Virus record (IMG/VR): IMGVR_UViG_3300036851_000176
Span: 1-64,000 of that record
Reading direction: 5' to 3' (one strand)
DNA: 64,000 bases
Source of the DNA: a virus
Below, piece after piece: positions 1 through 18,063 of the stretch. Position numbers and translations under genes: made by a program. Under the pieces are notes generated by a model, which saw nothing but the letters and a program-made list of their open reading frames with translations, was not told the origin of the DNA and searched no databases. Position 1 is the stretch's first letter. Each line of letters begins with the position of its first letter.

Positions 1-252
1 GACGGCGATGAGCGCGCGATCTACGACGCTTTCAAGACGCGCCGAGTCGTGGCCGCTCAGATCGCGGCTGCGAGTTACAAGCCCGGAGACCGCGTGCGCT
101 TCACTGACGCGGTTCGGCCGAAGTACCTCATCGGAGTCGAGGCAAATGTCGTCAAAGTCAACGCCAAGACGGTCGTTGTCAAGATGGACTCTGTGCAGGG
201 ACGCTTCGGCGGCGAGACCCGCTGTCCGGCTGAACTGATCGAGGCCGTCTAA
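1..252 (+). CDS. Hypothetical protein, 5'-partial, KOW/SH3-like C-terminus
   Basis: Frame 1 is open from position 1 (DGDERAIYDAFK...YKPGDRVRF...); TAATG overlap with next gene. Confidence 0.6.
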   Translation, partial: DGDERAIYDAFKTRRVVAAQIAAASYKPGDRVRFTDAVRPKYLIGVEANVVKVNAKTVVVKMDSVQGRFGGETRCPAELIEAV

Positions 253-629
253 TGGCTGCCAAGGTCTACAGCCTGCCGGAAGGGTTGCCCGAGCCGGACT
301 TCGACATCTGCATCACGCAGGGATCGGATGCCTACTTCGCGGCATGCGAGGAACACGAAGAGGCCGTGCGCCAGTGGTGCATCGCGAACAGCGATAGCAC
401 GAGGCTACGCGGCAACATCGTCGGCAAGGTCATCAGCTTCGGCGTGGCGGACGGCAGGGCGCAGTACATGATCTACCGCCACTCCCCTCTGTCCCTCATC
501 CACCTGCCCTACGTGGACGCCTATGAGGCTCACCCGCTCATGCTCAAAGGGCTGACGCTCTTGGAGTGCAAGCGCATGGTGCGCGCGGACGAGAACCTTG
601 CCAAGTTGTTCGGACGGAGGGCATCATGA
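252..629 (+). CDS. Hypothetical phage protein
   Basis: 125-aa ORF coupled by overlap at both ends. Confidence 0.7.
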   Translation: MAAKVYSLPEGLPEPDFDICITQGSDAYFAACEEHEEAVRQWCIANSDSTRLRGNIVGKVISFGVADGRAQYMIYRHSPLSLIHLPYVDAYEAHPLMLKGLTLLECKRMVRADENLAKLFGRRAS

Positions 630-922
630 GCGCAAGACTTCCGAGTCCTGATAGCACAACCCTTGCGACCTGGGCCGAGAACGAAGCCCTGCCGATCGCA
701 CCGTGGCCCAAGACCGGCGAGTGCTCCTGCGGCTGCGACAACTGGCGCGACGTTGAGCACGGCTACGTCCGATCCTCTGGCGCGACATTCGAGGACGGCG
801 TGCTCACTGTCTACCCTGACGGATGGGACGATCTGAGCGAGAACGGCGACGGCGAGCGCTACGTCCAGTGTGAGTCTTGCGGCAAGCGCTATGACTACAC
901 CGGCGAAGTGAGTTACTTGTGA
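626..922 (+). CDS. Zn-ribbon hypothetical protein
   Basis: ATGA overlap start at 626; CSCGC and CESCG motifs. Confidence 0.6.
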   Translation: MSARLPSPDSTTLATWAENEALPIAPWPKTGECSCGCDNWRDVEHGYVRSSGATFEDGVLTVYPDGWDDLSENGDGERYVQCESCGKRYDYTGEVSYL

Positions 923-1404
923 TCGCCACGGCTCTGACCGAGACCGCGCTGCGCGACTTCCTCGACCAGTACGCAACGGCGTCCGGCGACATTCAGGGCG
1001 ACCCGGCAACGATCGCGGCGGAAGCTGCTGCGGCCGGACTGGTTGAGCGCGACGGCGAGGCAGAGATTGAGGGCGATGCCGTCCTGCTGTATCGGGACAA
1101 GGTTGTTGTCAAGCATGACGACTATGTTGGCGATCCTCCGCTGCGCTGGATCATCGAGGAGTTAATCGCGATCGGCAGCGTGCCAGTCGTGAGCGGCTGC
1201 GAGCATGAGACCATCATCGAGTTTGACATTCCAGTCAAGTCTCTGTGGGTCGCGGCCGAGATGGTCCAGGAGTTGGACGTGACGCTCGCAGGCTACGGGG
1301 TCCATGTCAAAGATCAGCCGTTCGGATTCGCTGAGCGAAACATGGTGCGCGACGTATGGCGAAACACCTGCAACGAGGCCATGCGCCTCATGTACGCGCG
1401 ATGA
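919..1404 (+). CDS. Hypothetical protein
   Basis: 161-aa ORF, GTGA overlap. Confidence 0.65.
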   Translation: MIATALTETALRDFLDQYATASGDIQGDPATIAAEAAAAGLVERDGEAEIEGDAVLLYRDKVVVKHDDYVGDPPLRWIIEELIAIGSVPVVSGCEHETIIEFDIPVKSLWVAAEMVQELDVTLAGYGVHVKDQPFGFAERNMVRDVWRNTCNEAMRLMYAR

Positions 1405-1577
1405 TCTATCGACTCATGGAGCGGTACGGGCTGAACAGCCTTACGTTCGATCCGGCGAAGCTCGTATTCTCCATCGCGGCGATCGTATGCGCGGCCACGA
1501 CGCACTACACGGCAGGCATCATCCTGGCCGTGAGCGCTGGCACGGTCTCTCTCGGCATGACGTGGCGGCGGCTGTGA
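1401..1577 (+). CDS. Small membrane protein
   Basis: ATGA overlap; two hydrophobic segments. Confidence 0.55.
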   Translation: MIYRLMERYGLNSLTFDPAKLVFSIAAIVCAATTHYTAGIILAVSAGTVSLGMTWRRL

Positions 1578-1759
1578 GGGACATAGACCTGACCCGCTTG
1601 CAGGAGACCGGCAGCGCTCTACTGCCCCGCGCGAGCGAGACCCTAGCCTCTCTGCTGGAAGGTGTCGAGCAGTTGGGCATAGACCCCTCTCTAGTGACCG
1701 TTACGGGCGCTGGCGCGGCTCTGTGGCTCCGAGTCCAGCCGCTAGAGGACAAGCCCTGA
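1574..1759 (+). CDS. Hypothetical protein
   Basis: GTGA overlap, 61 aa. Confidence 0.5.
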   Translation: MRDIDLTRLQETGSALLPRASETLASLLEGVEQLGIDPSLVTVTGAGAALWLRVQPLEDKP

Positions 1760-1792
1760 GAACGGCTCCTGTGGCTTCCTGGGCCGACAAGA

Positions 1793-1831
1793 TCGAGCCT
1801 GCCGACTCTCTCCTGTGTTCGGCAGGCTCGA
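1793..1831 (+). terminator. 13-bp perfect hairpin, probable terminator upstream of the ligase promoter
   Basis: TCGAGCCTGCCGA-13 nt-TCGGCAGGCTCGA. Confidence 0.55.
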
Positions 1832-1839
1832 ATATCAAG

Positions 1840-1880
1840 ATCCCCCTTTCGGGTGAGAGCAGATCCCCCTTTCGGAGGAT
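1840..1880. promoter_or_regulatory. Two tandem copies of the 18-bp palindrome ATCMCCC-N4-GGGKGAT (1840-1857, 1863-1880)
   Basis: ATCCCCCTTTCGGGTGAG and ATCCCCCTTTCGGAGGAT; second copy ends 33 nt before ATG 1914. Confidence 0.75.
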
Positions 1881-1913
1881 GCGAGACTGGCTCCGATGGA
1901 CGATGATGAGAGT

Positions 1914-3056
1914 ATGGAAATGACTCCCCTGCCCACTCTCTACAAGCGAGCCAGCGACGGATCGATCCAGGAATGGACCATCCGCGTGGGCACGGACACG
2001 TCCGGCCACGGCTGGATCGTGACGGACTACGGCAAGGTCGGCGGCAAGATTCAGCGGACCGAGGACGTAGTGACCGAGGGCAAGAACGTGGGCCGCGCGA
2101 ACGAGACCACGGCGGTTGAACAGGCCGAGGCCGAGGCGCTGAGCAAGTGGGAAGGAAAACTCAAGAAGGGCTACGTCAAGACGATCGAGGAAGCGCGCGA
2201 GGGCAAGACGGACGCGCTCATCGTCGGCGGCGTGGCTCCCATGCTCGCGCATCCGTTCGCAAAGTACGGCCACAAGATCAAGTTCCCTGCGCTCGCGCAG
2301 CCGAAGCTCGACGGACACCGCTGCATCGCCGTCTATCAGAACGGCGAGGCGCGGCTGTACTCCCGGACGCGCAAGCCGATCACCGGACTGCCCCACGTCT
2401 GCCGAGCCATTGAATCATTGTGTCGGTCTATCGGCGCGACGAGCGGAGTGTTCGACGGCGAACTTTACAACCACGACTACCACGACAACTTCGAGGACCT
2501 GACGGGCTTCATTCGCTCGCAGACTCCTAAGCCTGGTAGCGAGGTAGTCCAGTATTGGATCTACGACCTTGTGAACGACTCACCGCAGTCCGCTCGCGCG
2601 GAGGCTATCGCTGCTATCTCGGAGCAGAGCGTAGGCGCGCTGGTCGCGGTTCCGACGATCGAGGTTGCAGACGAGGACGAAATGGTCGCGCTGTTCGGGG
2701 AGTTCATGGGCCAGGGCTACGAAGGTCTCATGCTCCGTAACCTGGACGGCCGCTACAAGATCGACGGCCGCAGTTACGACCTACAGAAGGTCAAACTGTT
2801 CCAGGACGCCGAGTACAAACTGGTCCACATCGAATCGGGCCGAGGCAAGATGCAGGGCAAGGCCGTGTTCCACTGTGAGGTTGAGCCTGGCAAGACCTTC
2901 AAGTGCAAGTTGGTCGGTCGCCTGGACGATCTGGAACAGTACCTCAACGAGCCGGACAAGTGGCTTGGCAAGATGGTGACTGTCCAGTTTCAGAACCTCT
3001 CATCGGACGGCATCCCCCGCTTCCCCGTCGCCCTTCGATTCAGGCAGGACGTATGA
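1914..3056 (+). CDS. lig: ATP-dependent DNA ligase with N-terminal WGR-like region
   Basis: QPKLDGHRC (KxDG), FDGELY, YEGLMLR, LQKVK, C-terminal PRFP. Confidence 0.93.
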   Translation: MEMTPLPTLYKRASDGSIQEWTIRVGTDTSGHGWIVTDYGKVGGKIQRTEDVVTEGKNVGRANETTAVEQAEAEALSKWEGKLKKGYVKTIEEAREGKTDALIVGGVAPMLAHPFAKYGHKIKFPALAQPKLDGHRCIAVYQNGEARLYSRTRKPITGLPHVCRAIESLCRSIGATSGVFDGELYNHDYHDNFEDLTGFIRSQTPKPGSEVVQYWIYDLVNDSPQSARAEAIAAISEQSVGALVAVPTIEVADEDEMVALFGEFMGQGYEGLMLRNLDGRYKIDGRSYDLQKVKLFQDAEYKLVHIESGRGKMQGKAVFHCEVEPGKTFKCKLVGRLDDLEQYLNEPDKWLGKMVTVQFQNLSSDGIPRFPVALRFRQDV

Positions 3057-3274
3057 GGGCAACCCCGCTCAGGCGCAGGCTCCCGAGCGTCGGAATCAAA
3101 CTGATCGACACCTTCAACCTTCGCACGGTCGAGGTCCTCGAAATCCACTCAGGCGAGTTGGGTAGCAAGGGCGGCAGTCCGGGCTTGCCACTCCTGTACG
3201 TTCGTGACCTTCTGACGGGCGACACCTACGGACGATGCTCGATCTACTTCTCTGACCTGGCAGAGTGCGCATGA
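3053..3274 (+). CDS. Hypothetical protein
   Basis: ATGA overlap with ligase stop. Confidence 0.5.
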   Translation: MRATPLRRRLPSVGIKLIDTFNLRTVEVLEIHSGELGSKGGSPGLPLLYVRDLLTGDTYGRCSIYFSDLAECA

Positions 3275-3471
3275 CTTTCTTCCTCTGCACTCGGTTCGAG
3301 AACAACAGCGGCATCCAGGCGATCGTCAACGCTCCAAACACAAGGGCTGCGCGGCTGCGCGCGGCTGATCCGTACTATGGCGCTCCTGGCATTGTCCGAC
3401 TCGCCACCCAGGATGAGATTGACTGGCACCTGGGATTCGGCGGCACGATCATCGAGGCGTCATCATCATGA
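3271..3471 (+). CDS. Hypothetical protein
   Basis: ATGA overlaps at both ends. Confidence 0.5.
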   Translation: MTFFLCTRFENNSGIQAIVNAPNTRAARLRAADPYYGAPGIVRLATQDEIDWHLGFGGTIIEASSS

Positions 3472-3671
3472 CGCCGAGACAGGTATTTGCTGACATCGTG
3501 TCCGAGGCTTTGGCCGAGGCTGTCGAGCGTGAGGTCAAGGTCGCCTATCGCAACGGCTACCGAGACGCGGCTGCGGCCTACGGCAATCCTCTCGAAGCCG
3601 TACAGCGCGCCTACGCGGAGGCCGACCTCAAGTCCGAGGTCTACGCGGCCGAGTTGGCAGAGGATCAATGA
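3468..3671 (+). CDS. Hypothetical protein
   Basis: 67-aa coupled ORF. Confidence 0.6.
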   Translation: MTPRQVFADIVSEALAEAVEREVKVAYRNGYRDAAAAYGNPLEAVQRAYAEADLKSEVYAAELAEDQ

Positions 3672-4075
3672 TCGATCACGTCAAAGACGACGCCGATCGG
3701 CCGAATGAGTTGGTCACGATCGGGTCGCGCTGGTTCGGCTGGCGACACCATTGGACAGTCATGGAAGAGAGGCGAGGCCACTATGGCGTAAGAGAAGTCC
3801 GGTTCGTCCGTGACGACAAGCCTGGCGTCCCCTCGACCGAGCGCCGCGTCCGAGACCAATGGCTCCCGGCATGGAGAATCCAGAGGTTCTGCGATCGGCA
3901 GGGCGACGTTGAAGTGCCCGAGCGCGAGCGCACGCGATCGAAGAGGATCGCTACGACCGAGCCGAAGGTCAAGCCCGCGCGCAAGGGGATCAAGCGCAAG
4001 GCTCCGGTCAAGCCCGCGACCGCGAAGCGGAAGCGCAAGACGACGGCGCGCAAGCGCCCGAGCGGACGGAATTAG
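3668..4075 (+). CDS. Hypothetical protein with basic K/R/A/P-rich tail
   Basis: C-terminus KPARKGIKRKAPVKPATAKRKRK. Confidence 0.6.
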   Translation: MIDHVKDDADRPNELVTIGSRWFGWRHHWTVMEERRGHYGVREVRFVRDDKPGVPSTERRVRDQWLPAWRIQRFCDRQGDVEVPERERTRSKRIATTEPKVKPARKGIKRKAPVKPATAKRKRKTTARKRPSGRN

Positions 4076-4542
4076 TGAAGGCTGGCAACAAAACGGCCGA
4101 GCCGAGAGTGTACGAGCTTTGGCTGACGAAGTACGTCAAGGACGCCTACGAGGACCAGACCGGCGCGAAGCATTGGGGCAACATCGTTTGGGGTCGCATC
4201 CTCGTCACCGAGATTGCGCGCTTCGCTGGCTACGAGGGCTACGGCCAGAAGTGGTACCCCGATGTCAACATCGCGGCCGAGGACGATGATGGTCGCATCT
4301 TCCACGGCATCGCGAACCTGATCGACTATTGGGGAGGGATGTCCTGGCGCATGGTCTACGGCGAGAGCGAGGGTGAGCCCGAGGGTTACTTCTGGCACAG
4401 CGCTCCCCATAAGCCAACAGGGTACGTCTACAAGGACGGCCATGGTCCGGTCGAGAAGTTGCTTGCCCCGAAGCCGAGACCGCTGCGCGAGGCAGAGAAG
4501 TCCACGCATCCCCCGAGACCGCCAAGGCCGTTGAAGGCATGA
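4075..4542 (+). CDS. Hypothetical protein
   Basis: 155-aa Trp/Tyr-rich ORF. Confidence 0.65.
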   Translation: MKAGNKTAEPRVYELWLTKYVKDAYEDQTGAKHWGNIVWGRILVTEIARFAGYEGYGQKWYPDVNIAAEDDDGRIFHGIANLIDYWGGMSWRMVYGESEGEPEGYFWHSAPHKPTGYVYKDGHGPVEKLLAPKPRPLREAEKSTHPPRPPRPLKA

Positions 4543-4737
4543 CGCTGCGAGAATGGCTCACGCACGAAGCCCTGCGGCACAACGTTCCCGTCTACCTCTT
4601 TCTCTCATGCTGCGGTCTCTGAGATTCATCCTCGACGCGCCTACCGTGCGCTCGTTCTTCTGGCGCATCGCATACTCGCTTGACTTCAAGACCGCAAGGG
4701 TTCTACTTGGCAATCGACCACGAAAGGAAGGGCATCG

Positions 4738-5055
4738 ATGACCCTCCTAGCACAGGACTGGTTCCAGTCCACGCACTACCATTCCGAGTCGCGAGACGAG
4801 GACGTGGAGATTCAATACATGCCGGTTCCGCATGCTCTGCATGCGCTCAACAAGATCCGGTATGACTACGGACTCGAAGCGCTCAAGACTCCGCTCGCGC
4901 GGGCGCTGGCACTGCGTGTCGCTCAGGCTGGCGACATCGAGGAAGTCCCTGGCTCCCAGGATCGGCGTCACGGCCGCGTCCTGCTGCTCGTGGACGCGCT
5001 GACCCGGACGTTCAAGGGTCTCTACCGGCGCTATCCCCTCGTGGAGTCACGCTGA
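4738..5055 (+). CDS. Hypothetical protein, paralog of 7914..8231
   Basis: YHSES...ALNKI...GLEALKTPLARAL shared pattern. Confidence 0.7.
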   Translation: MTLLAQDWFQSTHYHSESRDEDVEIQYMPVPHALHALNKIRYDYGLEALKTPLARALALRVAQAGDIEEVPGSQDRRHGRVLLLVDALTRTFKGLYRRYPLVESR

Positions 5056-5234
5056 TCCTCCCCGTCCTACTTCGGCTCGAAGAGGACGAAGCTCTGGCTC
5101 TCGATGTCGTGCTCGACTGCTTCTTTACGGAGTTGGCCGAGTACGACATTGAGCCGGACGACGCGATCGTTCGGCTGGCCGCAAAGGTCGGCATCGAGAG
5201 GATGCAGAAGATGGAGACAGAATCCCCCATTTAG
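5052..5234 (+). CDS. Hypothetical 60-aa protein, putative CTG start
   Basis: CTGA overlap with upstream stop, GGAG 5 nt upstream, fills an otherwise empty gap. Confidence 0.45.
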   Translation: MILPVLLRLEEDEALALDVVLDCFFTELAEYDIEPDDAIVRLAAKVGIERMQKMETESPI

Positions 5235-5239
5235 GGGAT
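5222..5239. promoter_or_regulatory. 18-bp palindrome copy
   Basis: ATCCCCCATTTAGGGGAT, 33 nt before ATG 5273; GATACT-N6-ATG. Confidence 0.75.
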
Positions 5240-5272
5240 GGTTCTTCGTCGTTTCCTGACGATACTTAGGCC

Positions 5273-5713
5273 ATGGCCGAATACACAAACATCACACAGG
5301 ACGAAATGGCGGACTTCCTGGGCGACCAGGGATTCCTACAGATCCTCCTGCCGGGAGTGACGGAGTTGGTCTACGCGCGGCGCGCGAACACCGACGACCT
5401 CAGCCTCTCCCTTCGCGTCTATACCGGCATCGCCCCGAGTGGCGAGAGCAGGGACGTGGGCGAGGATGCGATCCGCTGCGTGATCTTCTGGCGCAAGCCG
5501 AGCGGTGACATCGTGAAGGTAGCGACCACGAAGCGCGTCCATCGCGTCAAGGGCTGGCGCAAGAACCTCCAGGACCGCCTCGACAAGATCGGCGTCGAGA
5601 AGCGCTGCGAGTGCGGCGCTCCGATGATCCGGCGCAAGGCCAAGGCTGGCCGAGGGTCTGAATTTTACGGCTGCTCCACCTTCCCCGAGTGCCGCAAGAC
5701 GAGTTCTGTATGA
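5273..5713 (+). CDS. Protein with C-terminal topoisomerase-type C4 zinc ribbon
   Basis: CECGAPMIRR...FYGCSTFPECR. Confidence 0.75.
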   Translation: MAEYTNITQDEMADFLGDQGFLQILLPGVTELVYARRANTDDLSLSLRVYTGIAPSGESRDVGEDAIRCVIFWRKPSGDIVKVATTKRVHRVKGWRKNLQDRLDKIGVEKRCECGAPMIRRKAKAGRGSEFYGCSTFPECRKTSSV

Positions 5714-6768
5714 AGATCACTGTCCTGATCCCCTCGCACAACGAGGAAGCCGTGATCGCTCGCTCGATCGAGAGCGTCCTGGCTCAGACTCGACGGCCGG
5801 ACAGGATCATCGTTGTGGCCGACAACTGCACCGACAGGACAGAAGAGATTGCGCGCGAGTGCGGTGCGGAAGTGTTCGAGACCGTGGACAACAAGCATCG
5901 CAAGGCCGGTGGGCAGAATCAGGCGCTCGCGTGGCTGCTGCCGACGCTGAGCGACGAGGACCTCATCGTCTCGATGGACGCGGACACAATGCTCTCGCCG
6001 GAGTTCTTGCGTAACGCCTCTCGCCACTTCTCGATCCGCCCTGGTCTCGGAGCGTGCTCATCGAATCACCTGGTCCACGAGGCGAGCCGACTGGTCGAAA
6101 CTTTGCAGGAAATGGAGTACGAGCGCGACCGGCGCTACACCGGCCGAAAGCGCGGGAGGGTCGGCTGCATGACGGGCATGGCCTCCATGTTCTCCGTGAG
6201 TGCGCTCAGGCGCATCATCGAGTTGCATGGCACCGTCTACGACGAGGGCAACTGGACCGAGGATTGGAAACTGACCTTCGCGCTCAAGCACGCGGGCTAC
6301 CGCTGCATCCGTCCGCAGGACTGCACGGCGGCGACCGTCCCTGTCCCTCGCTGGCGCGAGTTGTTCGTCCAGCGCGAGCGTTGGGGTCGCGGCTACTTCC
6401 AAACGATCTGCGAGTTCGGCCTCACGCGACAGACCCTACAGCCGTGGCTCTCGCAGGCATGGGGAGCGCTCACTTCGATGATCTGGCTGGTCTGGATGAT
6501 CCTCCTGGCGGCGTCGATCGCCCGAGCGCATGAATTTCATTTCCCGCTGTGGTGCTATGCGACGACGGGCATCTTTATCACCGAGCGAGTCGTGACGGTC
6601 AGGAAGGCTGGCTGGCGCGCGGCGCTCATCGCGGGGCTGTACCTGCCCGAGATTCTGTACTCCTGGTGGCTCGTCGGAGCTACCTACTTCGGAGTTGCCA
6701 AGCATCTGCTTGGCCGTCAAGGCCAGTGGGGCGACGTTCGCGCCACCGGCAAAGCCACGATCACCTAG
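5710..6768 (+). CDS. Processive membrane GT2 glycosyltransferase (PgaC/IcaA/HAS-like)
   Basis: LIPSHNEE, DNCTD, KAG, DADT, TED, QRERW; C-terminal TM helices. Confidence 0.88.
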   Translation: MKITVLIPSHNEEAVIARSIESVLAQTRRPDRIIVVADNCTDRTEEIARECGAEVFETVDNKHRKAGGQNQALAWLLPTLSDEDLIVSMDADTMLSPEFLRNASRHFSIRPGLGACSSNHLVHEASRLVETLQEMEYERDRRYTGRKRGRVGCMTGMASMFSVSALRRIIELHGTVYDEGNWTEDWKLTFALKHAGYRCIRPQDCTAATVPVPRWRELFVQRERWGRGYFQTICEFGLTRQTLQPWLSQAWGALTSMIWLVWMILLAASIARAHEFHFPLWCYATTGIFITERVVTVRKAGWRAALIAGLYLPEILYSWWLVGATYFGVAKHLLGRQGQWGDVRATGKATIT

Positions 6769-6782
6769 AAGGGAGGTACTGC

Positions 6783-6938
6783 ATGTACGGACACTCAGCA
6801 CCGCCAAGCACCGCTGTCGGCGTGGCAGGAGTTCTGCCCTACACCGGACTTGGGCTTATCTGGATCGCCGTGATCGCTTTGACGATTCTGTCGGTCGGGT
6901 TTGCTCTGCTTCGGGTGATTCCTCGGCGCGAGGTCTGA
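6783..6938 (+). CDS. 51-aa micropeptide with LPXTG sorting signal
   Basis: MYGHSAPPSTAVGVAGV-LPYTG, hydrophobic helix, RVIPRREV tail; GGGAGG RBS. Confidence 0.8.
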   Translation: MYGHSAPPSTAVGVAGVLPYTGLGLIWIAVIALTILSVGFALLRVIPRREV

Positions 6939-7042
6939 TCGTTGCACGCTGCGGTTCCCGGATCGAGGGTCCGGGTTCCCGGAGCGCCACGACGGCGATC
7001 CTCTCACAATCCGAGCACAAGGGAGCCAAAAATGAACACAGA

Positions 7043-7060
7043 ATCCCCCGAAAGGGTGAT
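7043..7060. promoter_or_regulatory. 18-bp palindrome copy
   Basis: ATCCCCCGAAAGGGTGAT, 34 nt before ATG 7095; CATGCT-N6-ATG. Confidence 0.75.
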
Positions 7061-7094
7061 TGCAAATCAGGTCTCGATGTCACATGCTGAGACC

Positions 7095-7220
7095 ATGAAA
7101 CCAGGAATGACACTCCCCCTCAGCGCTATCGCTCTCGCAGTCGGGATCAGCCTCGTCCTTTGGGCCATCCTCTTCGCGGCCGTGATCGGCGGATACAAGG
7201 CGATTGAGGCCGTCCTGTGA
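7095..7220 (+). CDS. 41-aa single-TM protein
   Basis: Leaderless start fitting promoter spacing; hydrophobic core. Confidence 0.6.
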   Translation: MKPGMTLPLSAIALAVGISLVLWAILFAAVIGGYKAIEAVL

Positions 7221-7408
7221 ACGATCTGACGCACCCCTTCGCCAGTCGCGAGTTGAAGCGCAAGCCCGCTCCGAGTTACCTCTGGCTCGATCTTCCGGTC
7301 GAGGCCGACGAGGTTACGGACGAGCCTGCGACCATGCCCGTCCACCTGGGGCATGCGCCCCTATCGCATCACGGCCGAGCAACTGGACGCTCTGATCGAG
7401 TCCCATAG
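7217..7408 (+). CDS. Hypothetical protein
   Basis: GTGA overlap. Confidence 0.45.
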   Translation: MNDLTHPFASRELKRKPAPSYLWLDLPVEADEVTDEPATMPVHLGHAPLSHHGRATGRSDRVP

Positions 7409-7424
7409 CCGCTTCCCGCAGAAG

Positions 7425-7442
7425 ATCCCCCAAACGGGTGAT
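7425..7442. promoter_or_regulatory. 18-bp palindrome copy
   Basis: ATCCCCCAAACGGGTGAT, 34 nt before ATG 7477; AAGGAT-N6-ATG. Confidence 0.75.
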
Positions 7443-7494
7443 AGAAAAGGCTCAGAAAATGAGTAAGGATGGGACCATGAAGCAGGATGACCAT

Positions 7495-7965
7495 TCAGGA
7501 ACGAGGATGCCAACGAGCCGCCGCGCCTGCGTGAGCGAACTTCCGAATAGGGAAACCATGTTCGGCATGATGAGCAGCCTGATCGACACAGAGCTTCAGG
7601 TTCTCGATCCGGTTGTCGGCCACATCCTCGTTCCTGTGATGGACCTGCTCCTCTGGGTCCAACATTCTGCCAAGATGGTTCGCCATCACCAGACGATGCT
7701 CTCGAACGTATCCATGGCTATCCGCCATCGGATGCTCTGGAATCCTCAGCAGGATGTATCCATCCTTGTCGGTCGTCCACCCCTTTCGATTAGAGTTGTG
7801 TCCTTGGCAATATTCGCGCCAGTCTCCGCGTTTGTATCCAAGGCGAGAGTTAGAACGAGTGTGGCGGCTTACGGGCCTGCCGCAGTTGCACTTGCAGAGA
7901 GGGGCGGGGTCAGATGACGGGGGCAATTCCAGGACTTCCAATTTCTGTTGAGGAATATTTCTCAC
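7495..7965 (-). mobile_element. HNH homing endonuclease, antisense to the surrounding arm (start uncertain)
   Basis: CKCNCG, EHRLVMANHLGR, VHHRNEDVADNRIENL. Confidence 0.85.
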
Positions 7966-8231
7966 AGGACGAATGGTACTGGTCGGAGAGTAAGCAAGAG
8001 CGGATTCAGATCAAGAAATGTCCATGCCCGGTCGCGATGCGCGCGCTGGCGAAGATCGAGAGGACTCTTGGGTATGAAGCCCTCGAATCCCCGCTCGCTC
8101 AGGCTCTCAAGGCCCGAGCCGAGCAGGGGATCGGGGCAGAGTTGGTCGAGTTCGACGGACCGACCGGCCCGCGCATGATGCTCCGAGACAAAGAGACCAA
8201 GACGTTCCGCGCAGGCGCGAGTCGGATCTAA
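7914..8231 (+). CDS. Hypothetical protein, paralog of 4738..5055
   Basis: YWSES...ALAKI...GYEALESPLAQAL. Confidence 0.7.
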   Translation: MTGAIPGLPISVEEYFSQDEWYWSESKQERIQIKKCPCPVAMRALAKIERTLGYEALESPLAQALKARAEQGIGAELVEFDGPTGPRMMLRDKETKTFRAGASRI

Positions 8232-8232
8232 G

Positions 8233-8505
8233 GTGCGATCCGTTGCGGGCATCCTGCTCACACCCATCGCTCTCGTCCTCGGCAGCCTGCCGGGAAAGTG
8301 GTTCGATCCTCCCGAGGTTCCCGAGGAAGCGGACGATGAGACCCGGTGGGACTCCTACCATCCCTGCATGGGCTGCGGGACGCCCCTCTCGACGCGGCGG
8401 AAGTTCTGCGACGATCAGTGTCGGCGCGAGTACCGCATGCGGGAGATCAACGCGGAAGCCCCGACTGAACGAATTGATCCCTCGACTACGGACATTCCCT
8501 TCTGA
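8233..8505 (+). CDS. DUF2116-like Zn-ribbon protein with N-terminal hydrophobic segment
   Basis: HPCMGCGTPL...FCDDQC. Confidence 0.55.
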   Translation: MRSVAGILLTPIALVLGSLPGKWFDPPEVPEEADDETRWDSYHPCMGCGTPLSTRRKFCDDQCRREYRMREINAEAPTERIDPSTTDIPF

Positions 8506-8729
8506 TGCCTGACTTCGACAAGAGCGCGAGGAAGCGCATTAACCGAGCCATCCAGACCGCTCGCGAGTGTGCGAGTGCCGACCCCGGACTGGCAGACATT
8601 CGGCTAAAGCGCTTCCACCGCGCCATGGACGATCTTGTGTCCGAGGACGAGGGCTACGAGGTCTACAAGACGCTGCGCACCGAAGGCTGGTACGAGCAAG
8701 CTGCAGCGGCGTTGGAGCGATCGAAGTGA
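8505..8729 (+). CDS. Hypothetical protein
   Basis: Coupled 74-aa ORF. Confidence 0.6.
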   Translation: MPDFDKSARKRINRAIQTARECASADPGLADIRLKRFHRAMDDLVSEDEGYEVYKTLRTEGWYEQAAAALERSK

Positions 8730-9259
8730 AGTCTCGCGACGAGTGCAACTGCCTCTGCCACACGATGCCGAACGTGCGTCACGTCATGGCGTGCTGCGAC
8801 GGCCTGCCGTTTGGCGAAGGTAAGGACGCGATGATTCGCGAGGCCGATCGCCTGCTTGGGTGGGCTGAGTTCAACCTGACCAAGGGCAAGGTCGAGGCCA
8901 CACTCACCCTCATCGCCAAGGCACGGCGCGCTCTCGGAAGCGAGAGCATCAACACTCAGTTTCCTCCGCTCCCCATGGAACCGGCCGAGGCTCCGCATGC
9001 TCGCGTTCCTGTCGCCGGTCGCTTCGTGCTCCTGTCTCACCCCGACGAGGGCTACTGCACGTCTTGGGACACCTGGGAAGAGGCTAGCGTTGCGTTCGAG
9101 CGATCGGACGGGACCGGAGCGGCGCGGCGCATCCCCACAGGCAGGTTCGATCGAGACCTGACTGCGCGCATGCCAGCGGGGTTCAAGTTGTTCGACCAGG
9201 AGACCGGCCGGACGTGGCTCCCTGGCGCTCGTTACTACTGGGAGGACGCGGCAACCTAA
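8726..9259 (+). CDS. Hypothetical protein, Cys-rich N-terminus
   Basis: GTGA overlap; CNCLCH...HVMACC. Confidence 0.6.
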   Translation: MKSRDECNCLCHTMPNVRHVMACCDGLPFGEGKDAMIREADRLLGWAEFNLTKGKVEATLTLIAKARRALGSESINTQFPPLPMEPAEAPHARVPVAGRFVLLSHPDEGYCTSWDTWEEASVAFERSDGTGAARRIPTGRFDRDLTARMPAGFKLFDQETGRTWLPGARYYWEDAAT

Positions 9260-9498
9260 TGGCTGCGCGAGACTTCCCAGGATTCTCCGACGCCGAGCAG
9301 AACCTCGTCTTGAGGCTCATGCTGCACAACGCCGAGAGCCGCGAGCGGACGAGGGAAATGCTCTACAACTCGGAACGAGCGGCGCACGAGCGCACGCGAG
9401 CCGAGATGGAGCGCCTGAGCCACATGCTCGACGCACGAGACCGGCGTATGGCCTGGCTCGCGGGCGAAGAGTGGGACGACGATCAAGGAGACTGGTGA
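9259..9498 (+). CDS. Hypothetical coiled-coil protein
   Basis: TAATG overlap. Confidence 0.55.
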   Translation: MAARDFPGFSDAEQNLVLRLMLHNAESRERTREMLYNSERAAHERTRAEMERLSHMLDARDRRMAWLAGEEWDDDQGDW

Positions 9499-9713
9499 TG
9501 CCGGAACTTGCCGAGCAGCGGAATCTTTTCTCTCTGCGGGCAGACATCACGTCTGTCTGCCACGACGGGCTGCATGGACTGTGCTCGACGCGCCTCTGCG
9601 TCAACCCGGAGGACGGCTGGCACAACGCTCGCTATCAAGCGTGCGGGTGCGAGTGTCATCAGGTGCCACCGCATCTGGCGTACCTGTACTCCGACGACAA
9701 CGCGCTCGACTGA
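9498..9713 (+). CDS. Cys/His-rich small protein
   Basis: CHDGLHGLC...CGCECH. Confidence 0.55.
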   Translation: MPELAEQRNLFSLRADITSVCHDGLHGLCSTRLCVNPEDGWHNARYQACGCECHQVPPHLAYLYSDDNALD

Positions 9714-9964
9714 TGATCGACTTCAAGGACGCCGTTCTCGGCGTGGTGCAGGGTGATCCCGACGCGGCTCAACTCTTGCATCAGCTTAGAAGCACAATGC
9801 CAGCAGAGTACGAGCGGCTGGTCATGCACCTGTACGAGCGAGGCCCACGAGGTCATGCGCTCTGCGAGCAGTTCGAGGATCGGTGCGACCGAGATGTTCT
9901 CGTCCTGGGCCGGGACCTGATCGCCCGAGCCAGTGAATTTGACAAGGCAGGGTGGGATGCCTGA
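9713..9964 (+). CDS. Hypothetical protein
   Basis: TGATG overlap. Confidence 0.55.
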   Translation: MIDFKDAVLGVVQGDPDAAQLLHQLRSTMPAEYERLVMHLYERGPRGHALCEQFEDRCDRDVLVLGRDLIARASEFDKAGWDA

Positions 9965-10214
9965 AACGAATCCACACAAGAAGAAAAGCAAGGGTTGGGG
10001 TCATGAGAGTGAATACACTCGCCAGTTGCGGGAGAAATCGCTCGACAATGTGATCGTGACCGAATGCCTCTTGTGCGGCAGCAGCGTCAAGAAGCCCGCT
10101 CGCGAAGGGATCGCCTGGTTTCGTAAGCATGCAGAGACCGCTAGACATAAGCGCAACCTCGCGAAACACAAGATCACCCGTTCGGGTGATAGCGCTCCGA
10201 AGAGAAAGAGGTAA
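9957..10214 (+). CDS. Basic protein with CxxC...H...H zinc-finger-like motif
   Basis: CLLCG...RKHAETARH. Confidence 0.55.
   Translation: MPETNPHKKKSKGWGHESEYTRQLREKSLDNVIVTECLLCGSSVKKPAREGIAWFRKHAETARHKRNLAKHKITRSGDSAPKRKR
10173..10190. promoter_or_regulatory. 18-bp palindrome copy with perfectly inverted arms, inside a CDS
   Basis: ATCACCCGTTCGGGTGAT, 34 nt before ATG 10225; AATGAT-N6-ATG. Confidence 0.8.
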
Positions 10215-10224
10215 TGATCTGACT

Positions 10225-10410
10225 ATGAGCAGGGAGGAATTCAAGGAAGCAACCGGGTTCTACCCCACGCCGAACATGCTGCTTCTCGCCAACGAGATGC
10301 AGGACGTGGCAGTTCGCATGTGCCTCGAAGAGAGCGTGGACTTCACGATCCTCGCTCTCGAAGGAATCGTGATCGGTCTCCGACCGATGTCCACCGGAGG
10401 AATGAACTGA
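10225..10410 (+). CDS. Hypothetical protein (leaderless)
   Basis: Start fits the conserved promoter spacing. Confidence 0.6.
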   Translation: MSREEFKEATGFYPTPNMLLLANEMQDVAVRMCLEESVDFTILALEGIVIGLRPMSTGGMN

Positions 10411-10664
10411 TGGGACGAATTCTTATCTGGCACGACAAGCATGGCCCTGCCCACTACTCGGCTGATACCGATGTTCAGTTGCACGAAGCAGCCCTGACCG
10501 TTTTGGCCGAGCGCGTCGAGTATGGGTACATCTTCTGGCCAGAGAATGCCGAGGAGACCGCTTATGGAATTCTCGATCGCCAAGACGGGGTTGCGGCTCT
10601 GGCGTTCCTTCAAGAACGAAACGACCACGAGTACGAGAGAATCAGCATCGAGGAAACGAGATGA
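10410..10664 (+). CDS. Hypothetical protein
   Basis: TGATG overlap. Confidence 0.6.
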   Translation: MGRILIWHDKHGPAHYSADTDVQLHEAALTVLAERVEYGYIFWPENAEETAYGILDRQDGVAALAFLQERNDHEYERISIEETR

Positions 10665-10942
10665 ACGAAGGCTCCCGCAAGACTGGACACAAGATCGGCT
10701 CGAATCGCGGCATCCTTTCCGCTCGTCGTGAGCGACGGCGCGAAGAGGCCGAGGCTCGTCAGCGCGAGCACGATAAACTGACTCCCGACGAGAAGCTGCG
10801 CAAGTTGGACAAACGGCACAACGTCGGGAAGGCAAGCGGATTCTCAGAGCGAGAGCGCGCCAAGTTGCGCGCGGCTGCCGAGAAGGTCTCCCTCAAAGAG
10901 CGACGAAAGAAGAAAGGAAGAAAGAATGACTCTGTTTCCTGA
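10661..10942 (+). CDS. Basic hypothetical protein
   Basis: R/K/E-rich coupled ORF. Confidence 0.6.
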   Translation: MNEGSRKTGHKIGSNRGILSARRERRREEAEARQREHDKLTPDEKLRKLDKRHNVGKASGFSERERAKLRAAAEKVSLKERRKKKGRKNDSVS

Positions 10943-11156
10943 TTGGGAAGCCCGACACGCAATCGAGCAGATCGTCGAAGCGCTGAACAAGACTGCTCAG
11001 ACGATCGTTACCGTCGCGAACGGCGAGAGAAAAACCGCCGAGAAGTTCCTGGACCTGTTCGAGAAAATCGCGAACAATCAGACGCTACTCGCCACGGCCG
11101 TTTCAGAACTGTCCGGTCGAATCGATCGTCTGGAAAGGCTCAACGAGATCCGGTGA
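10926..11156 (+). CDS. Coiled-coil hypothetical protein
   Basis: 76-aa ORF with RBS. Confidence 0.55.
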   Translation: MTLFPDWEARHAIEQIVEALNKTAQTIVTVANGERKTAEKFLDLFEKIANNQTLLATAVSELSGRIDRLERLNEIR

Positions 11157-11533
11157 GGACCGTCGCCTGCAAAGAGTTATCCGCCAGCGAAGGCAAGGTG
11201 GTAGTTGTCGGAACCACCTGCCCCTTCTGCGGCAGGGCGCTCAGCGAGCACAAGGAAGTCGAAGATGTCCCCGAAGTCCACAAAGTCCACACGATCGAGG
11301 CGAAGGAGGTAGGCACCGATGGCGCAGTCGTCCACAAAGCCAAGCGGGAGCGAGCGGCCTGATGCCTCGATGGATGCCAAACTCAACGGCGTGGTCGTAG
11401 GGGAGAACGGCAACGTGATCGTTCCTGTCCCCTACGACAAGTCGGTCGAGGGTAAGGTGGCGTGGGCAGTCGCCTTCCCGCGAGACCACTGGACTCCCGA
11501 GTTCTGGGCGTCTTGCCGACCGGGTGAACTTTA

Positions 11534-11824
11534 ATGGGCAAGCGCGCGCCATGGGATCGCACCGTTCACGCCGAGTACCAGGACGTAGAGATCGTGCGCT
11601 ACGACCGACAGGGACACTGGTACATCGAGCCAATCGGTTTCGCAACTCTTCGGCGCCAGAAGGTCAACCTTCGGGCAGCAGTAGAGCAAGCGATCTGGGC
11701 GATCAACTATCCCGGGGTGAACGGACGAGTCTACATCGGCCTTCCGGGAGGCGGCGCATTCGATGCTCGCTTCCGCAAACTCACGGGCATAGACATCAGG
11801 CATGGTCAGGTCTACGGCCAATGA
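11534..11824 (+). CDS. Hypothetical protein
   Basis: 96-aa coupled ORF. Confidence 0.6.
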   Translation: MGKRAPWDRTVHAEYQDVEIVRYDRQGHWYIEPIGFATLRRQKVNLRAAVEQAIWAINYPGVNGRVYIGLPGGGAFDARFRKLTGIDIRHGQVYGQ

Positions 11825-12029
11825 AGCCTTGGGAGCACCCCGACGCAGCGGACCAGATTCCGAACCCCGAAGGGAGCGACGACGGCAGCGCATCGGCCAA
11901 GAATTTGTACGACCAGGGAGTCATCAAGGCGATGGAGGCAGTGCTCATCGCCATAGACTCCGGAGCATCCATCTCGCAAATCCGCGAGGCAGCGGAACAG
12001 ACAATCTCACGACTAGGAAAGGAAGACAC

Positions 12030-12458
12030 ATGAGCAGTTTCTACGAGAACCCGACCGAGAGAGGCATCGTGGCCCGAATCATCGGCTACACAGTGCTTGC
12101 TGTCATCGTGGTCGGGATCATCAGCGCAGCCCTATGGGGTGCGGGAGTTCTCTTCGCCGGACCGAAGGGTCAGGGCGAGGCGTACAAGCAGAAGGAGTCG
12201 GCGGTCAATCGCATCGAGAAGCAGGAAATGTTCGTTCAGCTCAATGAGGATTTCCAAGGCTTCATCGCGAAGATCGAGGTTGCCAAGCAGGCTTACCAGC
12301 GCGACCCGAGCGATGTCAACTCGACGAACCTCACCGGCGTGACTCAGATCTGCATCGACACGGCACAGCAGTACAACGCCGAGTCACAGAAGTACACGTC
12401 TCGCGACTTCAAGAGCGCGGGGCTTCCCTATCGACTCGATCCGGCTGATTGCCGGTAG
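12030..12458 (+). CDS. Membrane-anchored protein
   Basis: N-terminal TM helix, ATGA overlap, strong RBS. Confidence 0.7.
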   Translation: MSSFYENPTERGIVARIIGYTVLAVIVVGIISAALWGAGVLFAGPKGQGEAYKQKESAVNRIEKQEMFVQLNEDFQGFIAKIEVAKQAYQRDPSDVNSTNLTGVTQICIDTAQQYNAESQKYTSRDFKSAGLPYRLDPADCR

Positions 12459-12469
12459 GAGGACAACAC

Positions 12470-13036
12470 ATGAAGCGCTTTTCCAAGACGACTTTCGTCG
12501 TCGCCCTCGTCGCCCTCATCGTCGTGGCGGTAGCCATTGCCGGAAAGCCGAAGTGGCAGAAGGCCGACGAGAAAGTCTCGGACTACATCGCGACTGTCAT
12601 GGAGCGAGCAGTCCCGTACCCGCAGGCACAGATGAAGGACTCGCAGGAGCGCCGAAACCTGCGAGAGCGCCTGCTCCGCTTCAACAAGCAGAAGAAGATC
12701 GGCTACGTCTACCTGCTGGGAATGAACGGAAACTTCGTCGGCTACTACGCCATCAACGGCAAGGTGTCGAGCACTTCGTCTCAGCTAACGACGACTGAGC
12801 AGACCTGGGACTGCGGCAATGCAGACGGCGCATGCTCTGTCCCTTCGATCGGTGACGATGGCTCGTTCGGACCGAACGAAGGCGGCGATGACGGCGTGTT
12901 CTTCTTCACCACAAACGGAGTCCTAGTCGAGACGACCATGGACTTCATCTACTCCGACAGTCCGCTTCCTGTCCATGCGGCAAGGCTGAACCCTGCCAGG
13001 GGACAGCAGGACCTGTCGAACCGCAAAGGTCGCTGA
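12470..13036 (+). CDS. Secreted or membrane-anchored protein
   Basis: MKRFSK plus hydrophobic signal; GKVSS...DDGSFG...GVFFFT; AGGAGG RBS. Confidence 0.75.
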   Translation: MKRFSKTTFVVALVALIVVAVAIAGKPKWQKADEKVSDYIATVMERAVPYPQAQMKDSQERRNLRERLLRFNKQKKIGYVYLLGMNGNFVGYYAINGKVSSTSSQLTTTEQTWDCGNADGACSVPSIGDDGSFGPNEGGDDGVFFFTTNGVLVETTMDFIYSDSPLPVHAARLNPARGQQDLSNRKGR

Positions 13037-13037
13037 C

Positions 13038-13235
13038 CTGAAACGGATCGTGATTCTGTCGGCAGCGGTGGTCGCCTTCGCGGCCACCGCCACCGGCTGC
13101 TCAGTAGATTTTGGCCCATGCAATCAAAGCGATGGACACCGCTATCACCACAAGAGCGGAGACACCGGCTGTAACACCCCCGAACGAACCCGGAGGCATG
13201 AACGAATGATGAACCGAACGGAAGGAAGACAATGA
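13038..13235 (+). CDS. Putative lipoprotein, probable CTG start
   Basis: MKRIVILSAAVVAFAATATGC lipobox-like signal. Confidence 0.5.
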   Translation: MKRIVILSAAVVAFAATATGCSVDFGPCNQSDGHRYHHKSGDTGCNTPERTRRHERMMNRTEGRQ

Positions 13236-13837
13236 TCCCCGAGAAAACCCTCGCAGAAGCCATCCTGCGCCACGCTGACGCCTTTGAATGGTCGATCCAG
13301 GGTCTCGGCATGCTCCGGACGTACATCGACGCAGAGAAGACCCTGCGGCTTCACGTCTGGAGCCGAGAGCACGCCGTCCCAGGAGTGAGCCAGATGCACA
13401 CTCATCCCTGGCACATGAAATCTCACGTCTTGGCCGGAGTGGTCATGCAGTATCGCTACACGCTCGAAGGCACCGAGGCCGAAGTTCCCGATCGTGAAGT
13501 CACGTATCGAATGGGCCTCTACAACCGACAGTCCCTCAAGTGCGGCGTCGGCGGACACCTGGAAGAGGCTCCCGATAAAGTGTGGCTCCGACAGGGAGAC
13601 TTCGAGCAGTACAACGCTGGCGAGGCGTACACGCAGCGCGCGGACGAGATTCACGTCTCGAACCCGCTCAGCGGCACGGTCACGCTGCTCGACCGCAAGG
13701 TCCCCGAGGGAGCGAATCCTGATCTGGCCTACGTGTTCTGGCCCGCAAACGAAGAGTGGGTCTCGGCCGAGCCACGACCGGCAACCGACGAAGAGCGCGA
13801 CGAGATCATCGGCGTAGCTCTGGAGACGTGGTTCTAA
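13232..13837 (+). CDS. Cupin/double-stranded beta-helix protein
   Basis: LRLHVW...MHTHPW...DEIHVS. Confidence 0.65.
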   Translation: MIPEKTLAEAILRHADAFEWSIQGLGMLRTYIDAEKTLRLHVWSREHAVPGVSQMHTHPWHMKSHVLAGVVMQYRYTLEGTEAEVPDREVTYRMGLYNRQSLKCGVGGHLEEAPDKVWLRQGDFEQYNAGEAYTQRADEIHVSNPLSGTVTLLDRKVPEGANPDLAYVFWPANEEWVSAEPRPATDEERDEIIGVALETWF

Positions 13838-14034
13838 TGACGCGAAGAGAAAATGGTCCAACTCCTGCTCGACATCCGATCGCAGGCAACACGCAAAGAT
13901 CGGGCGTCAGAGGACAAGCCCTACCTCCTCACCGACCTGGAAATCATCGCCAGGAAGGCTCAGCAGGCCCTCGACGCGCGAGACGACGGCCCTCGCCCTC
14001 CCTTTTACGGAATGATGGAACTGGTGGGAGACTG

Positions 14035-14334
14035 ATGACCAGGATCAACGAAGAGGCTCTCGAAGCCGCTCGTCTTGCCGTCGAGGACGCTCTGATCGAA
14101 CTCAGGGATGCCCGCATCGGCATCCTGAACGGCGGCAACGGATTCGTCGTTCGCGAGTACGACGGAAAAGAGTCCTCGATCATGCGCATGAGCACGCGCG
14201 ACGGACTGCGTATTGGAATCAAGGCGTACCTGGCGGCGCTGGACGGCGAGTACGAAATGGAGCATGCTGACAACTGCAACGACTACACTGGATGCCAGGA
14301 AGGGTGCCGGTGGGTGCGAAAGGTGAGCGTATGA
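14035..14334 (+). CDS. Hypothetical protein
   Basis: TGATG overlap. Confidence 0.6.
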   Translation: MTRINEEALEAARLAVEDALIELRDARIGILNGGNGFVVREYDGKESSIMRMSTRDGLRIGIKAYLAALDGEYEMEHADNCNDYTGCQEGCRWVRKVSV

Positions 14335-14747: not shown

Positions 14748-15089
14748 AATTCCGAGCAGAAATCGACGTGGAGATCGAGGCAGACTCAATCGAGACAGCC
14801 GACCGGCTGGCCGAAGAGGCTGCTGCGACGATCTTCCGAGCCAACAACAGCGGCACGATCGTGAGCGGCACTGTCGCCGCCGTCGCGCCCAGGAGGGAAT
14901 CATGAAGATCCAGGACCACGAAATCGAATTGCGAGAGGGAGTCGTGATCGACCTCGACAGCGACCTCCAGCGCTCTACGTTCAAGTACATCATCGATTGC
15001 GGCCTGCGCGAAATCGCCGGTCCCGGCAACGAGGCCGCATACGGACAGATGCTCGTCTGGAAGGAACTCGCCCAGGAGGGTAAGACCTG

Positions 15090-17065: not shown

Positions 17066-17071
17066 TAGAAC

Positions 17072-18062: not shown

Positions 18063-18063
18063 C

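Follow-up and report, generated by a model that had tools for sequence, protein, structure and literature searches.

Palindromic boxes within one block of the phage genome

The DNA analysed here belongs to the uncultured soil actinophage record IMGVR_UViG_3300036851_000176 (146,625 bp; contig G000), of which positions 1-64,000 form the window. Near its left end the window carries an ATP-dependent DNA ligase gene, an operon coding for a Zn-ribbon protein, a GT2 glycosyltransferase and a third small ORF, and several further short ORFs, interspersed with an 18-bp palindrome (Table 1). The initial annotation had listed six copies of this palindrome, and all of them are present. Six sites in the window match ATCMCCC-N4-GGGKGAT with at most one mismatch vs none in 100 dinucleotide shuffles, a result that answers the objection, set down beforehand, that the motif might be equally frequent at random positions.

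Table 1. Boxes, -10 hexamers and genes of the window, with the GerE/LuxR-type candidate encoded elsewhere in the record
Feature	Position	Strand	Remark
Distal box of tandem pair	1840..1857	+	1 mismatch; 23 bp centre to centre from the 1863 box; no -10/ATG of its own at module spacing
Ligase promoter box	1863..1880	+	motif match, 1 mismatch
-10 hexamer GATGAT	1902..1907	+	21 nt past the 1863 box, 6 nt ahead of ATG 1914
ATP-dependent DNA ligase gene	1914..3056	+	read as leaderless start
Box, Zn-ribbon/GT2 operon promoter	5222..5239	+	motif match, 1 mismatch
-10 hexamer GATACT	5261..5266	+	ends 6 nt ahead of ATG 5273
Zn-ribbon/GT2/LPYTG operon	5273..6938	+	three ORFs
Zn-ribbon protein, 146 aa	5273-5713	+	first ORF of GT2 operon
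GT2 glycosyltransferase	5710-6768	+	second ORF of GT2 operon
51-aa ORF	6783-6938	+	third ORF of GT2 operon
Box	7043..7060	+	motif match, 0 mismatches
-10-like hexamer CATGCT	7083..7088	+	ends 6 nt ahead of ATG 7095
Hydrophobic ORF, 41 aa	7095..7220	+	begins at module ATG
Box	7425..7442	+	motif match, 0 mismatches
-10-like hexamer AAGGAT	7465..7470	+	ends 6 nt ahead of ATG 7477
Open frame, 146 aa	7477..7917	+	from module ATG; coding status doubtful
HNH endonuclease gene	7495..7965	-	PF13392, E 4.9e-8; inserted antisense downstream of 7425 promoter
Box	10173..10190	+	0 mismatches; 16-bp core = published BldM group I consensus, 16/16
-10-like hexamer AATGAT	10213..10218	+	ends 6 nt ahead of ATG 10225
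61-aa ORF	10225..10410	+	begins at module ATG
GerE/LuxR-type stand-alone protein, 96 aa	108,760-109,050	-	activator candidate

Boxes with a promoter-like arrangement precede both the ligase gene and the GT2/LPYTG operon, which supports the proposal that both belong to one regulon. Homologues of the ligase, some of them 60-66% identical, start at about the same residue, which fits ATG 1914 better than 1896. The coding status of the frame downstream of the 7425 box is doubtful because a real HNH gene lies opposite on the minus strand. One box had been described as kept inside a coding sequence; this is true only if the predicted 85-aa ORF at 9957-10214 is real, in which case the 10173 box falls within its last 14 codons.

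The copy number of six stands for the window but not for the record, in which the proposed full-phage scan found 15 sites at up to one mismatch, 21 at up to two and 25 by weight matrix; the palindrome observation is thus confirmed and larger than first reported. All 25 weight-matrix sites, like the 21 at up to two mismatches, lie inside 131,968-146,625 and 1-10,190, with zero in the remaining 121 kb. Since the record ends overlap, the box-bearing stretches at both ends constitute one block of ~25 kb on the plus strand, so that the sites, over-represented and skewed towards promoter regions, are confined to 17% of the genome. Genes of this block include those for a helicase, rIIA/rIIB-like proteins and the ligase, besides the GT2 operon and a large number of small genes. 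The block also includes a divergent non-coding switch (131,968-132,474) in which an array of 13 boxes lies, i.e. 13 box-like sites within 500 bp vs 9 in 100 kb of background.

Geometry of the promoter module

Five of the window boxes end 33-34 nt ahead of an ATG (1914, 5273, 7095, 7477 and 10225), and the hexamer of each ends exactly 6 nt ahead of that ATG, both as initially described. The arrangement amounts to a fixed module consisting of the box, 21-22 nt, a GATACT-type -10, 6 nt and the ATG, and an identical module was found in three more IMG/VR contigs, G001 (93.8 kb), G003 (54.9 kb) and G004 (8.4 kb). Across the four phage contigs, whose boxes share the overall consensus TCMCCC-N4-GGGKGA, 31 of 46 boxes are followed by NANNNT-N6-ATG, and the box-to-hexamer spacing in these 31 modules is 21 nt (n = 19) or 22 nt (n = 10), with single instances of 20 and 23 nt.

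Position -11 is A and position -7 is T in the -10 hexamer of all 31 modules, and conservation extends over the region from -15 to -9 (G 21/31, C 23/31, C 28/31, G 28/31, A 31/31, T 30/31 and A 27/31). The description of the -10 elements as degenerate and weak consequently suits the window copies but fails for most copies outside the window, where the -10 region is strong and nearly invariant. At most modules a -35 is matched at no more than 2-3 of 6 positions, so that a -10 is present and a -35 absent. The idea that an activator compensates for weak -10 elements is unsupported or at least incomplete, as the missing element is the -35 and a weak -10 is peculiar to the window copies. No excess of canonical promoters or terminators was detected in window positions 1-18000.

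From this spacing a leaderless transcript is predicted, with the midpoint of the box near -42.5; a midpoint of -42.5 or -43.5 presupposes that the ATG is the transcription start. We infer the start sites and the binding from this arrangement, which supports the earlier proposal of a dimeric site centred near -43 of leaderless promoters, namely a dyad-symmetric protein site that is not accompanied by a -35.

The half-sites themselves speak for a protein site. The paired bases are CC 14, AA 9, CA 7 and AC 15 at position 4, and CC 30, TC 8, CT 5 and TT 1 at position 6; the half-sites thus vary independently, indicating that there is no selection for base pairing and that the palindrome is a protein site rather than a hairpin. 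A terminator or processing hairpin in RNA or DNA between gene cassettes is the least probable of the readings considered: although the palindrome can form a GC-rich stem of 7 bp and two copies were flagged in a simple terminator scan, the arms do not covary (position 4 is mismatched in about half of the copies), no T tract follows, the region has no surplus of terminator-like sites (10 observed vs 11.8 expected), the box-to--10 distance is fixed, and unrelated phages and host loci have kept the very sequence of the stem.

The module in unrelated phages and at bacterial two-component loci

G001, G003 and G004 have few or no genes in common with G000, no protein common to all four box-bearing contigs was found, and G000, G001 and G003 share a single family, that of a long protein encoded in the fibre gene cluster. 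In G003 a separate palindrome lies between the box and the -10 at every box promoter, and it looks like the actual operator there. Megablast of the box region and of G001 against 50,697 phage records gave no match, and neither did a short-query blastn of one module or, in search of a host, tblastn of one G003 protein; blastn of a G001 stretch returned only short matches to tail genes of Streptomyces and Gordonia phages. Since 80 IMG/VR loci with a homologous ligase (about 1.5 Mb) contain no box at up to one mismatch, the box does not track phage ancestry.

The same module also occurs in bacteria, where it adjoins NarL/LuxR-type two-component genes in genomes of Mycobacteriaceae and Streptomycetaceae. 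In eight Mycobacteriaceae/Actinomycetota genomes it stands ahead of a leaderless HAD-like gene, divergent from a REC+GerE response-regulator gene; in Streptomycetaceae it is found upstream of leaderless HisKA_3 kinase genes, and in a Pseudarthrobacter MAG upstream of a LuxR-family gene. These loci lend sequence support to the suggested link to host signalling, and the promoters of ~20 genes of the early block are, by their layout, built like self-activating actinobacterial two-component promoters. Where host genomes contain the exact 16-bp palindrome, it is in most cases not followed by the -10/start part, and only one exact full module was found among 121 Mycobacteriaceae genomes sampled. The host genomes examined contain about one complete module each, and a host regulator acting through it would therefore be a local autoregulator and not a known global one.

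The 10173 copy had been likened to the site of BldM, and the consensus given for it proved correct. In Streptomyces the BldM group I site, a footprinted palindrome of 16 bp with the sequence TCACcCgnncGgGTGA, is the target of a NarL-type homodimer (Al-Bassam et al. 2014, PMC4125116), and the sites at 10173 and 138829 match it 16/16. The phage consensus nevertheless differs from the group I sites in that C is about as frequent as A at the third position. Moreover, the host loci with the full module encode ordinary kinase/regulator pairs whereas BldM is an orphan regulator, which makes BldM a possible binder, one candidate among several. A literature search for BldM and bacteriophage gave no paper linking them, and a search by motif strings gave nothing useful.

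Candidate regulators and comparison with known systems

LuxR-family candidates for the binder are of two kinds, the host REC+GerE regulators adjoining the module and a predicted GerE-fold protein of 96 aa encoded by the phage. We favour the reading, at a probability of roughly 0.58, that the box is the site of a dimeric LuxR/NarL-family protein, most likely an actinobacterial host response regulator, which would activate from a lux-box-like position. Transcription would start at the A of the ATG, setting the box at about -42.5 in place of the absent -35, and the bound dimer would recruit host RNA polymerase in the manner of lux-box (class II) promoters. The ~20 promoters and the 13-box array would place one ~25-kb block under one regulator. 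Expression of these genes would then probably require a signalling protein of the host.

The main rival is a phage-encoded activator that binds the box, comparable to T4 MotA or Mu Mor/C, which would make the block a self-switched middle class; phage activators replacing the -35 element are well known, yet we regard this reading as unlikely. The proposed search for a LuxR-type HTH gene in the rest of the genome did yield the 96-aa candidate, which matches PF00196 at 19.7-20.3 bits, under the 23.5-bit cut-off, and whose AlphaFold model (mean pLDDT 75.7) is best matched in fold by the DNA-binding domains of GerE, LiaR and VraR (TM-score 0.88 normalised to the target, rmsd 1.0 Å). However, this ORF has no homologue in G001, G003 or G004, which have the same box and spacing, and no regulator-like protein is common to G000, G001 and G003; the GerE match is absent from G003 and G004, both incomplete contigs (68% and 20% complete, respectively) from which a regulator gene could lie off-contig. 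The 96-aa gene is also far from the boxes, with none nearby, and nine small ORFs tested at 132.5-139.6 kb, in the first part of the block, contain no DNA-binding domain. Weak HTH matches were seen in a 74-aa ORF at 128.3 kb of G000 and, at the C-terminus, in a 150-aa ORF of G001. Furthermore, Jay2Jay, a Streptomyces phage of cluster BE whose rIIA-like protein is 35% identical and which was the relative of cultured host tested here, has only two chance-like core matches and no box.

Less probable still is negative control, in which the box would be an operator and a host or phage dimer lying over the -35 region would silence the block, for instance in particular states of the host, by analogy with Spo0A in phi29 or with lytic deferment of the CtrA type. 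Many actinobacterial promoters work without a -35, and such promoters can be constitutive, so that a site at -51 to -34 could repress rather than activate; the dense 13-box array, too, resembles a silencing or sink region. Both published cases of host regulators acting on phages include repression or gating (PMC2731898, PMC9437464). Against this, the spacing to the -10 is 21-22 nt in 29/31 modules, which is typical of stereospecific polymerase contact and unneeded for steric blocking, the same geometry recurs at host two-component promoters, and G003 has its separate operator-like palindrome.

An alternative sigma factor of the sigma-28/WhiG type that reads the promoters, with the box merely modulating, appears very improbable. 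The -10 region consensus GCCGATAC/A resembles what we take to be the sigma-28 -10 element, and the conservation from -15 to -9 goes well beyond plain TANNNT, but no TAAA-type -35 follows the box, sigma-70 region 2 was not found in G000 or G001, and the Streptomyces host modules retain only GATACT/GATAAT. A promoter elsewhere in G000 pairs GATACT with a TTGCAC -35, and to our knowledge Mycobacteriaceae have no sigma of the sigma-28/WhiG type.

If a host response regulator drives the promoters, the early programme of the phage is wired to a host signalling pathway. A tentative extension, to which we give clearly less credence than to the host regulator itself, is that at least three unrelated actinophage lineages independently copied a host NarL-type autoregulatory promoter, with the early-type block firing only when the host pathway (envelope stress, development or other) is active; the 13-box array might then also titrate the regulator and so blunt the host's own response. 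Such wiring has been shown for CtrA in Alphaproteobacteria (PMC9437464) and Spo0A in Bacillus (PMC2731898), whereas our literature searches turned up no report of it in actinophages, with NarL-type regulators or in such a rigid activator geometry with leaderless transcripts. As the module is short, sharply defined and common to unrelated phages, it could mark uncultured phages whose hosts carry the cognate regulator; it could also serve actinobacterial genetics as a compact regulator-dependent leaderless promoter.

One of the two closest published parallels is offered by the CtrA sites of pili- and flagellotropic alphaproteobacterial phages (Mascolo et al. 2022, PMC9437464), in which host-regulator sites likewise are concentrated within promoter regions of part of the genome, are packed very densely in one intergenic region and evolved in phages of unrelated lineages. 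CtrA is of the OmpR type and belongs to another host phylum, in contrast to the NarL/LuxR-type palindrome of G000, where the spacing from each site to a -10 and to a presumably leaderless start is constant and where we infer the binder from sequence. In the second parallel, the Bacillus phages phi29 and Nf, the host developmental response regulator Spo0A binds early promoters (Castilla-Llorente et al. 2009, PMC2731898), coupling phage expression to the host state as proposed here. Spo0A, however, represses from few sites at variable positions, whereas the geometry in G000 points to activation at ~20 promoters. The T4 MotA box and the Mu Mor/C dyad near -43.5 mark activator-dependent middle/late promoters and resemble the present module in combining a -10, but no -35, with an upstream box by which the genes of one temporal class are set apart; in those phages the activator is encoded by the phage itself and accompanies the box, unlike the situation here, where box-sharing phages have no protein in common. 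In class II promoters of the lux-box (LuxR/TraR) type, the -35 gives way to a dyad of 18-20 bp with its centre near -42.5 while the -10 is present, and the G000 dyad would occupy the same place next to its -10; it differs in having no acyl-homoserine-lactone receptor, in its presumably leaderless transcripts and in being multiplied ~20-fold within a phage genome.

Distribution of the box and its promoter module

The initial annotation described six copies of the palindrome ATCMCCC-N4-GGGKGAT, and all six were recovered in the window (1840, 1863, 5222, 7043, 7425 and 10173) with 0–1 mismatch; none arose in 100 dinucleotide shuffles. Five of these boxes end 33 or 34 nt ahead of an ATG, and the hexamers GATGAT, GATACT, CATGCT, AAGGAT and AATGAT each end 6 nt ahead of the respective ATG. 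The count of six holds for the window, but the whole IMG/VR virus record G000 (146,625 bp, 95% complete by CheckV, the window being its leading 64 kb) carries far more, namely 15 sites with at most one mismatch and 21 with at most two. A weight matrix applied at a threshold of ≥12 bits returned 25 sites in G000, all inside 131,968-146,625 or 1-10,190, and none in the other 121 kb. Since the final 127 nt of the record recur exactly near the window start and an open frame spans the junction, the two ends are contiguous in the genome, and the record, nominally linear, is effectively a closed or terminally redundant one.

Outside the window the module is plainer, consisting of the box, 21-22 nt, a -10 region with the consensus gGCCGATACT, 6 nt and the ATG. 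The start codon lies exactly at the module position for 13 of 21 G000 boxes, and boxes 140449 and 142357 keep the -10 with the start codon absent. A non-coding switch of ~500 bp, from which leftward and rightward genes diverge, holds 13 box-like palindromes against a background of 9 in 100 kb. They are spaced 22-44 bp apart except for two larger gaps and mostly lack a -10 and ATG; the array may serve as a sink for the regulator, as an enhancer-like region or as an origin.

In the window, boxes lead the gene for an ATP-dependent DNA ligase, a Zn-ribbon gene with GT2 and a 51-aa ORF behind it, and a further three small ORFs, in agreement with the proposed inclusion of ligase and GT2 genes. At the right end of G000 the genes behind boxes encode a UvrD-type helicase, rIIA-like and rIIB-like proteins, a DUF2958 protein and others. 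Opposite the HNH gene, the plus-strand frame from 7477 is open for 146 codons and may simply represent read-through toward gene 7914. Separately, a translated stretch of ~52 residues lies just 5′ of a box in both G000 and the phage contig G001 (44% identical).

Coordinates of features and contigs carrying the module
Feature	Location or size	Strand	Remark
HNH endonuclease gene (PF13392)	window 7495-7965	-	antisense insertion between 7425 promoter and gene 7914
96-aa stand-alone GerE/LuxR-fold protein	G000 108,760-109,050 (L006:1423-1713)	-	GerE match below Pfam cut-off; model
Array of box-like palindromes	G000 131,968-132,474 (L005:1969-2475)		
End repeat, 127 nt	G000 146,499-146,625; window 48-174		
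~52-residue stretch	G000 137,877-138,029; G001 53,013-53,168		G000 copy overlaps another called gene, different frame
Cell-envelope genes common to G000 and G001	window 17866-18540, 26326-26886, 40836-42149; L006:965-1396		
12-bp palindrome of G003	825, 17740, 29068, 41322, 42326, 53639 (L059-L061)		beside 6/6 boxes
Divergent host promoters	L080:2212-2300		Mycobacteriaceae MAG
G001	93.8 kb, 66.6% GC		16 boxes, both strands
G003	54.9 kb		6 boxes
G004	8.4 kb		3 boxes

Pattern scans of IMG/VR revealed the identical module in three further contigs, G001, G003 and G004. G000 and G001 have about a dozen proteins in common, including a small cell-envelope set (sortase, lysozyme, GT4 glycosyltransferase and MotA/ExbB-like proteins), and are otherwise unrelated; G003 has almost no proteins in common with either, the sole family present in all three being a long protein encoded in the fibre gene cluster. 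The rIIA-like protein of G000 is ~35% identical to counterparts in Streptomyces phages of clusters BE and BK (family Stanwilliamsviridae), and no nucleotide-level relative of G000 was found among 50,697 phage records. The box is missing from 80 viral loci that encode a homologous ligase, as it is from phage Jay2Jay, which indicates that it tracks something other than phage ancestry. Every box promoter of G003 carries a second palindrome, GTACCCGGGTAC, between box and -10; absent from G000, G001 and G004, it looks like an operator for a G003-specific repressor.

Host and phage candidates for the regulator

When one genome per prokaryotic species was scanned for the box together with a -10, there were 30 matches, eight of which represent a single locus conserved among Mycobacteriaceae and related Actinomycetota. 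There the full module precedes a leaderless gene for a ~180-aa HAD-like hydrolase, which adjoins gatB and diverges from the gene for a response regulator of the NarL family (REC+GerE); this regulator gene is also leaderless and follows a TACGGT hexamer. In L080 one box lies between the two divergent leaderless genes, each of which has a -10 at the same 21-nt distance from it; the hexamer on the regulator side is at least 10 nt further off in other species. Among Streptomycetaceae, box-N20-23-GATAMT occurred in 9 of 101 sampled genomes (reversed control, 0), and four of the nine sites lie ahead of leaderless genes for HisKA_3 histidine kinases; these genes are of two types, one of which is followed by a regulator gene. 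A Pseudarthrobacter MAG has the module ahead of a 349-aa LuxR-family gene. These loci identify the module as a kind of promoter that stands next to the genes of actinobacterial NarL/LuxR-type systems themselves, at ~1 complete module per host genome versus ~20 within 25 kb of phage DNA. The box core is the footprinted BldM consensus (PMC4125116), which the initial annotation had given correctly.

The search for a LuxR-type HTH gene in the rest of the phage genome yielded the 96-aa protein, and the main rival explanation makes it a possible activator in G000, or else a protein that competes for these boxes late. Its predicted fold favours this, the model superposing on the DNA-binding domains of GerE, LiaR and VraR, but no homologue was found in G001, G003 or G004, which carry the same module. 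Its gene overlaps the end of a glycosyltransferase-like gene and adjoins the MotA/ExbB-like gene, and a large protein database contained only one near relative, a protein of 84% identity from a 1.3-kb contig. In the first part of the ~25-kb plus-strand block of boxes, none of nine small ORFs tested displayed a recognisable DNA-binding domain.

Module geometry and the reader of the box

In all 31 modules the hexamer carries an A at -11 and a T at -7 and lies exactly 6 nt from the start codon, at 21 nt (n=19), 22 nt (n=10), 20 nt (n=1) or 23 nt (n=1) from the box. Conservation goes far beyond TANNNT: the bases G, C, C and G occupy -15 to -12, 28/31 modules have G at -4 and 23/31 have C at -1. 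The weak -10 suggested initially describes the degenerate window copies but not the strongly conserved element of most copies elsewhere. Most modules lack a -35 match, and canonical promoters show no excess in window 1-18000 (2 found, 3.4 expected). The -10 region resembles the sigma-28 -10 element, although a sigma-28-like reading is poorly supported; sigma-70 region 2 was not found in G000 or G001. Assuming that transcripts begin at the ATG, the box would be centred at -42.5 or -43.5, as for the lux box and other class II activators. This geometry would fit the proposed activator near -43, and the tight spacing between box and -10 fits stereospecific polymerase contact better than steric blocking.

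The box was rejected as a hairpin, since the half-sites of 46 boxes, drawn from four phage contigs, vary independently (position 4 pairs: CC 14, AA 9, CA 7, AC 15; position 6 pairs: CC 30, TC 8, CT 5, TT 1) and about half of the copies would have a stem mismatch. No T tract lies 3′ of the box, and terminator-like sites are not enriched. Conservation of sequence and not of pairing indicates a dimeric protein as the probable reader.

The best-supported reading of these sequences is that a host NarL/LuxR-family regulator would bind the boxes and activate a block of leaderless phage genes; in this reading the regulatory direction, the start sites of transcription and the host are all inferred. The suggested tie to host signalling gains from the same module standing beside actinobacterial NarL/LuxR-type genes. 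Among the closest published systems are the CtrA sites in alphaproteobacterial phages (PMC9437464) and the Spo0A boxes in phi29 and Nf (PMC2731898). The phage case is a variant of this kind, differing in the predicted regulator family, in host phylum and in a rigid activator-type geometry on predicted leaderless transcripts.
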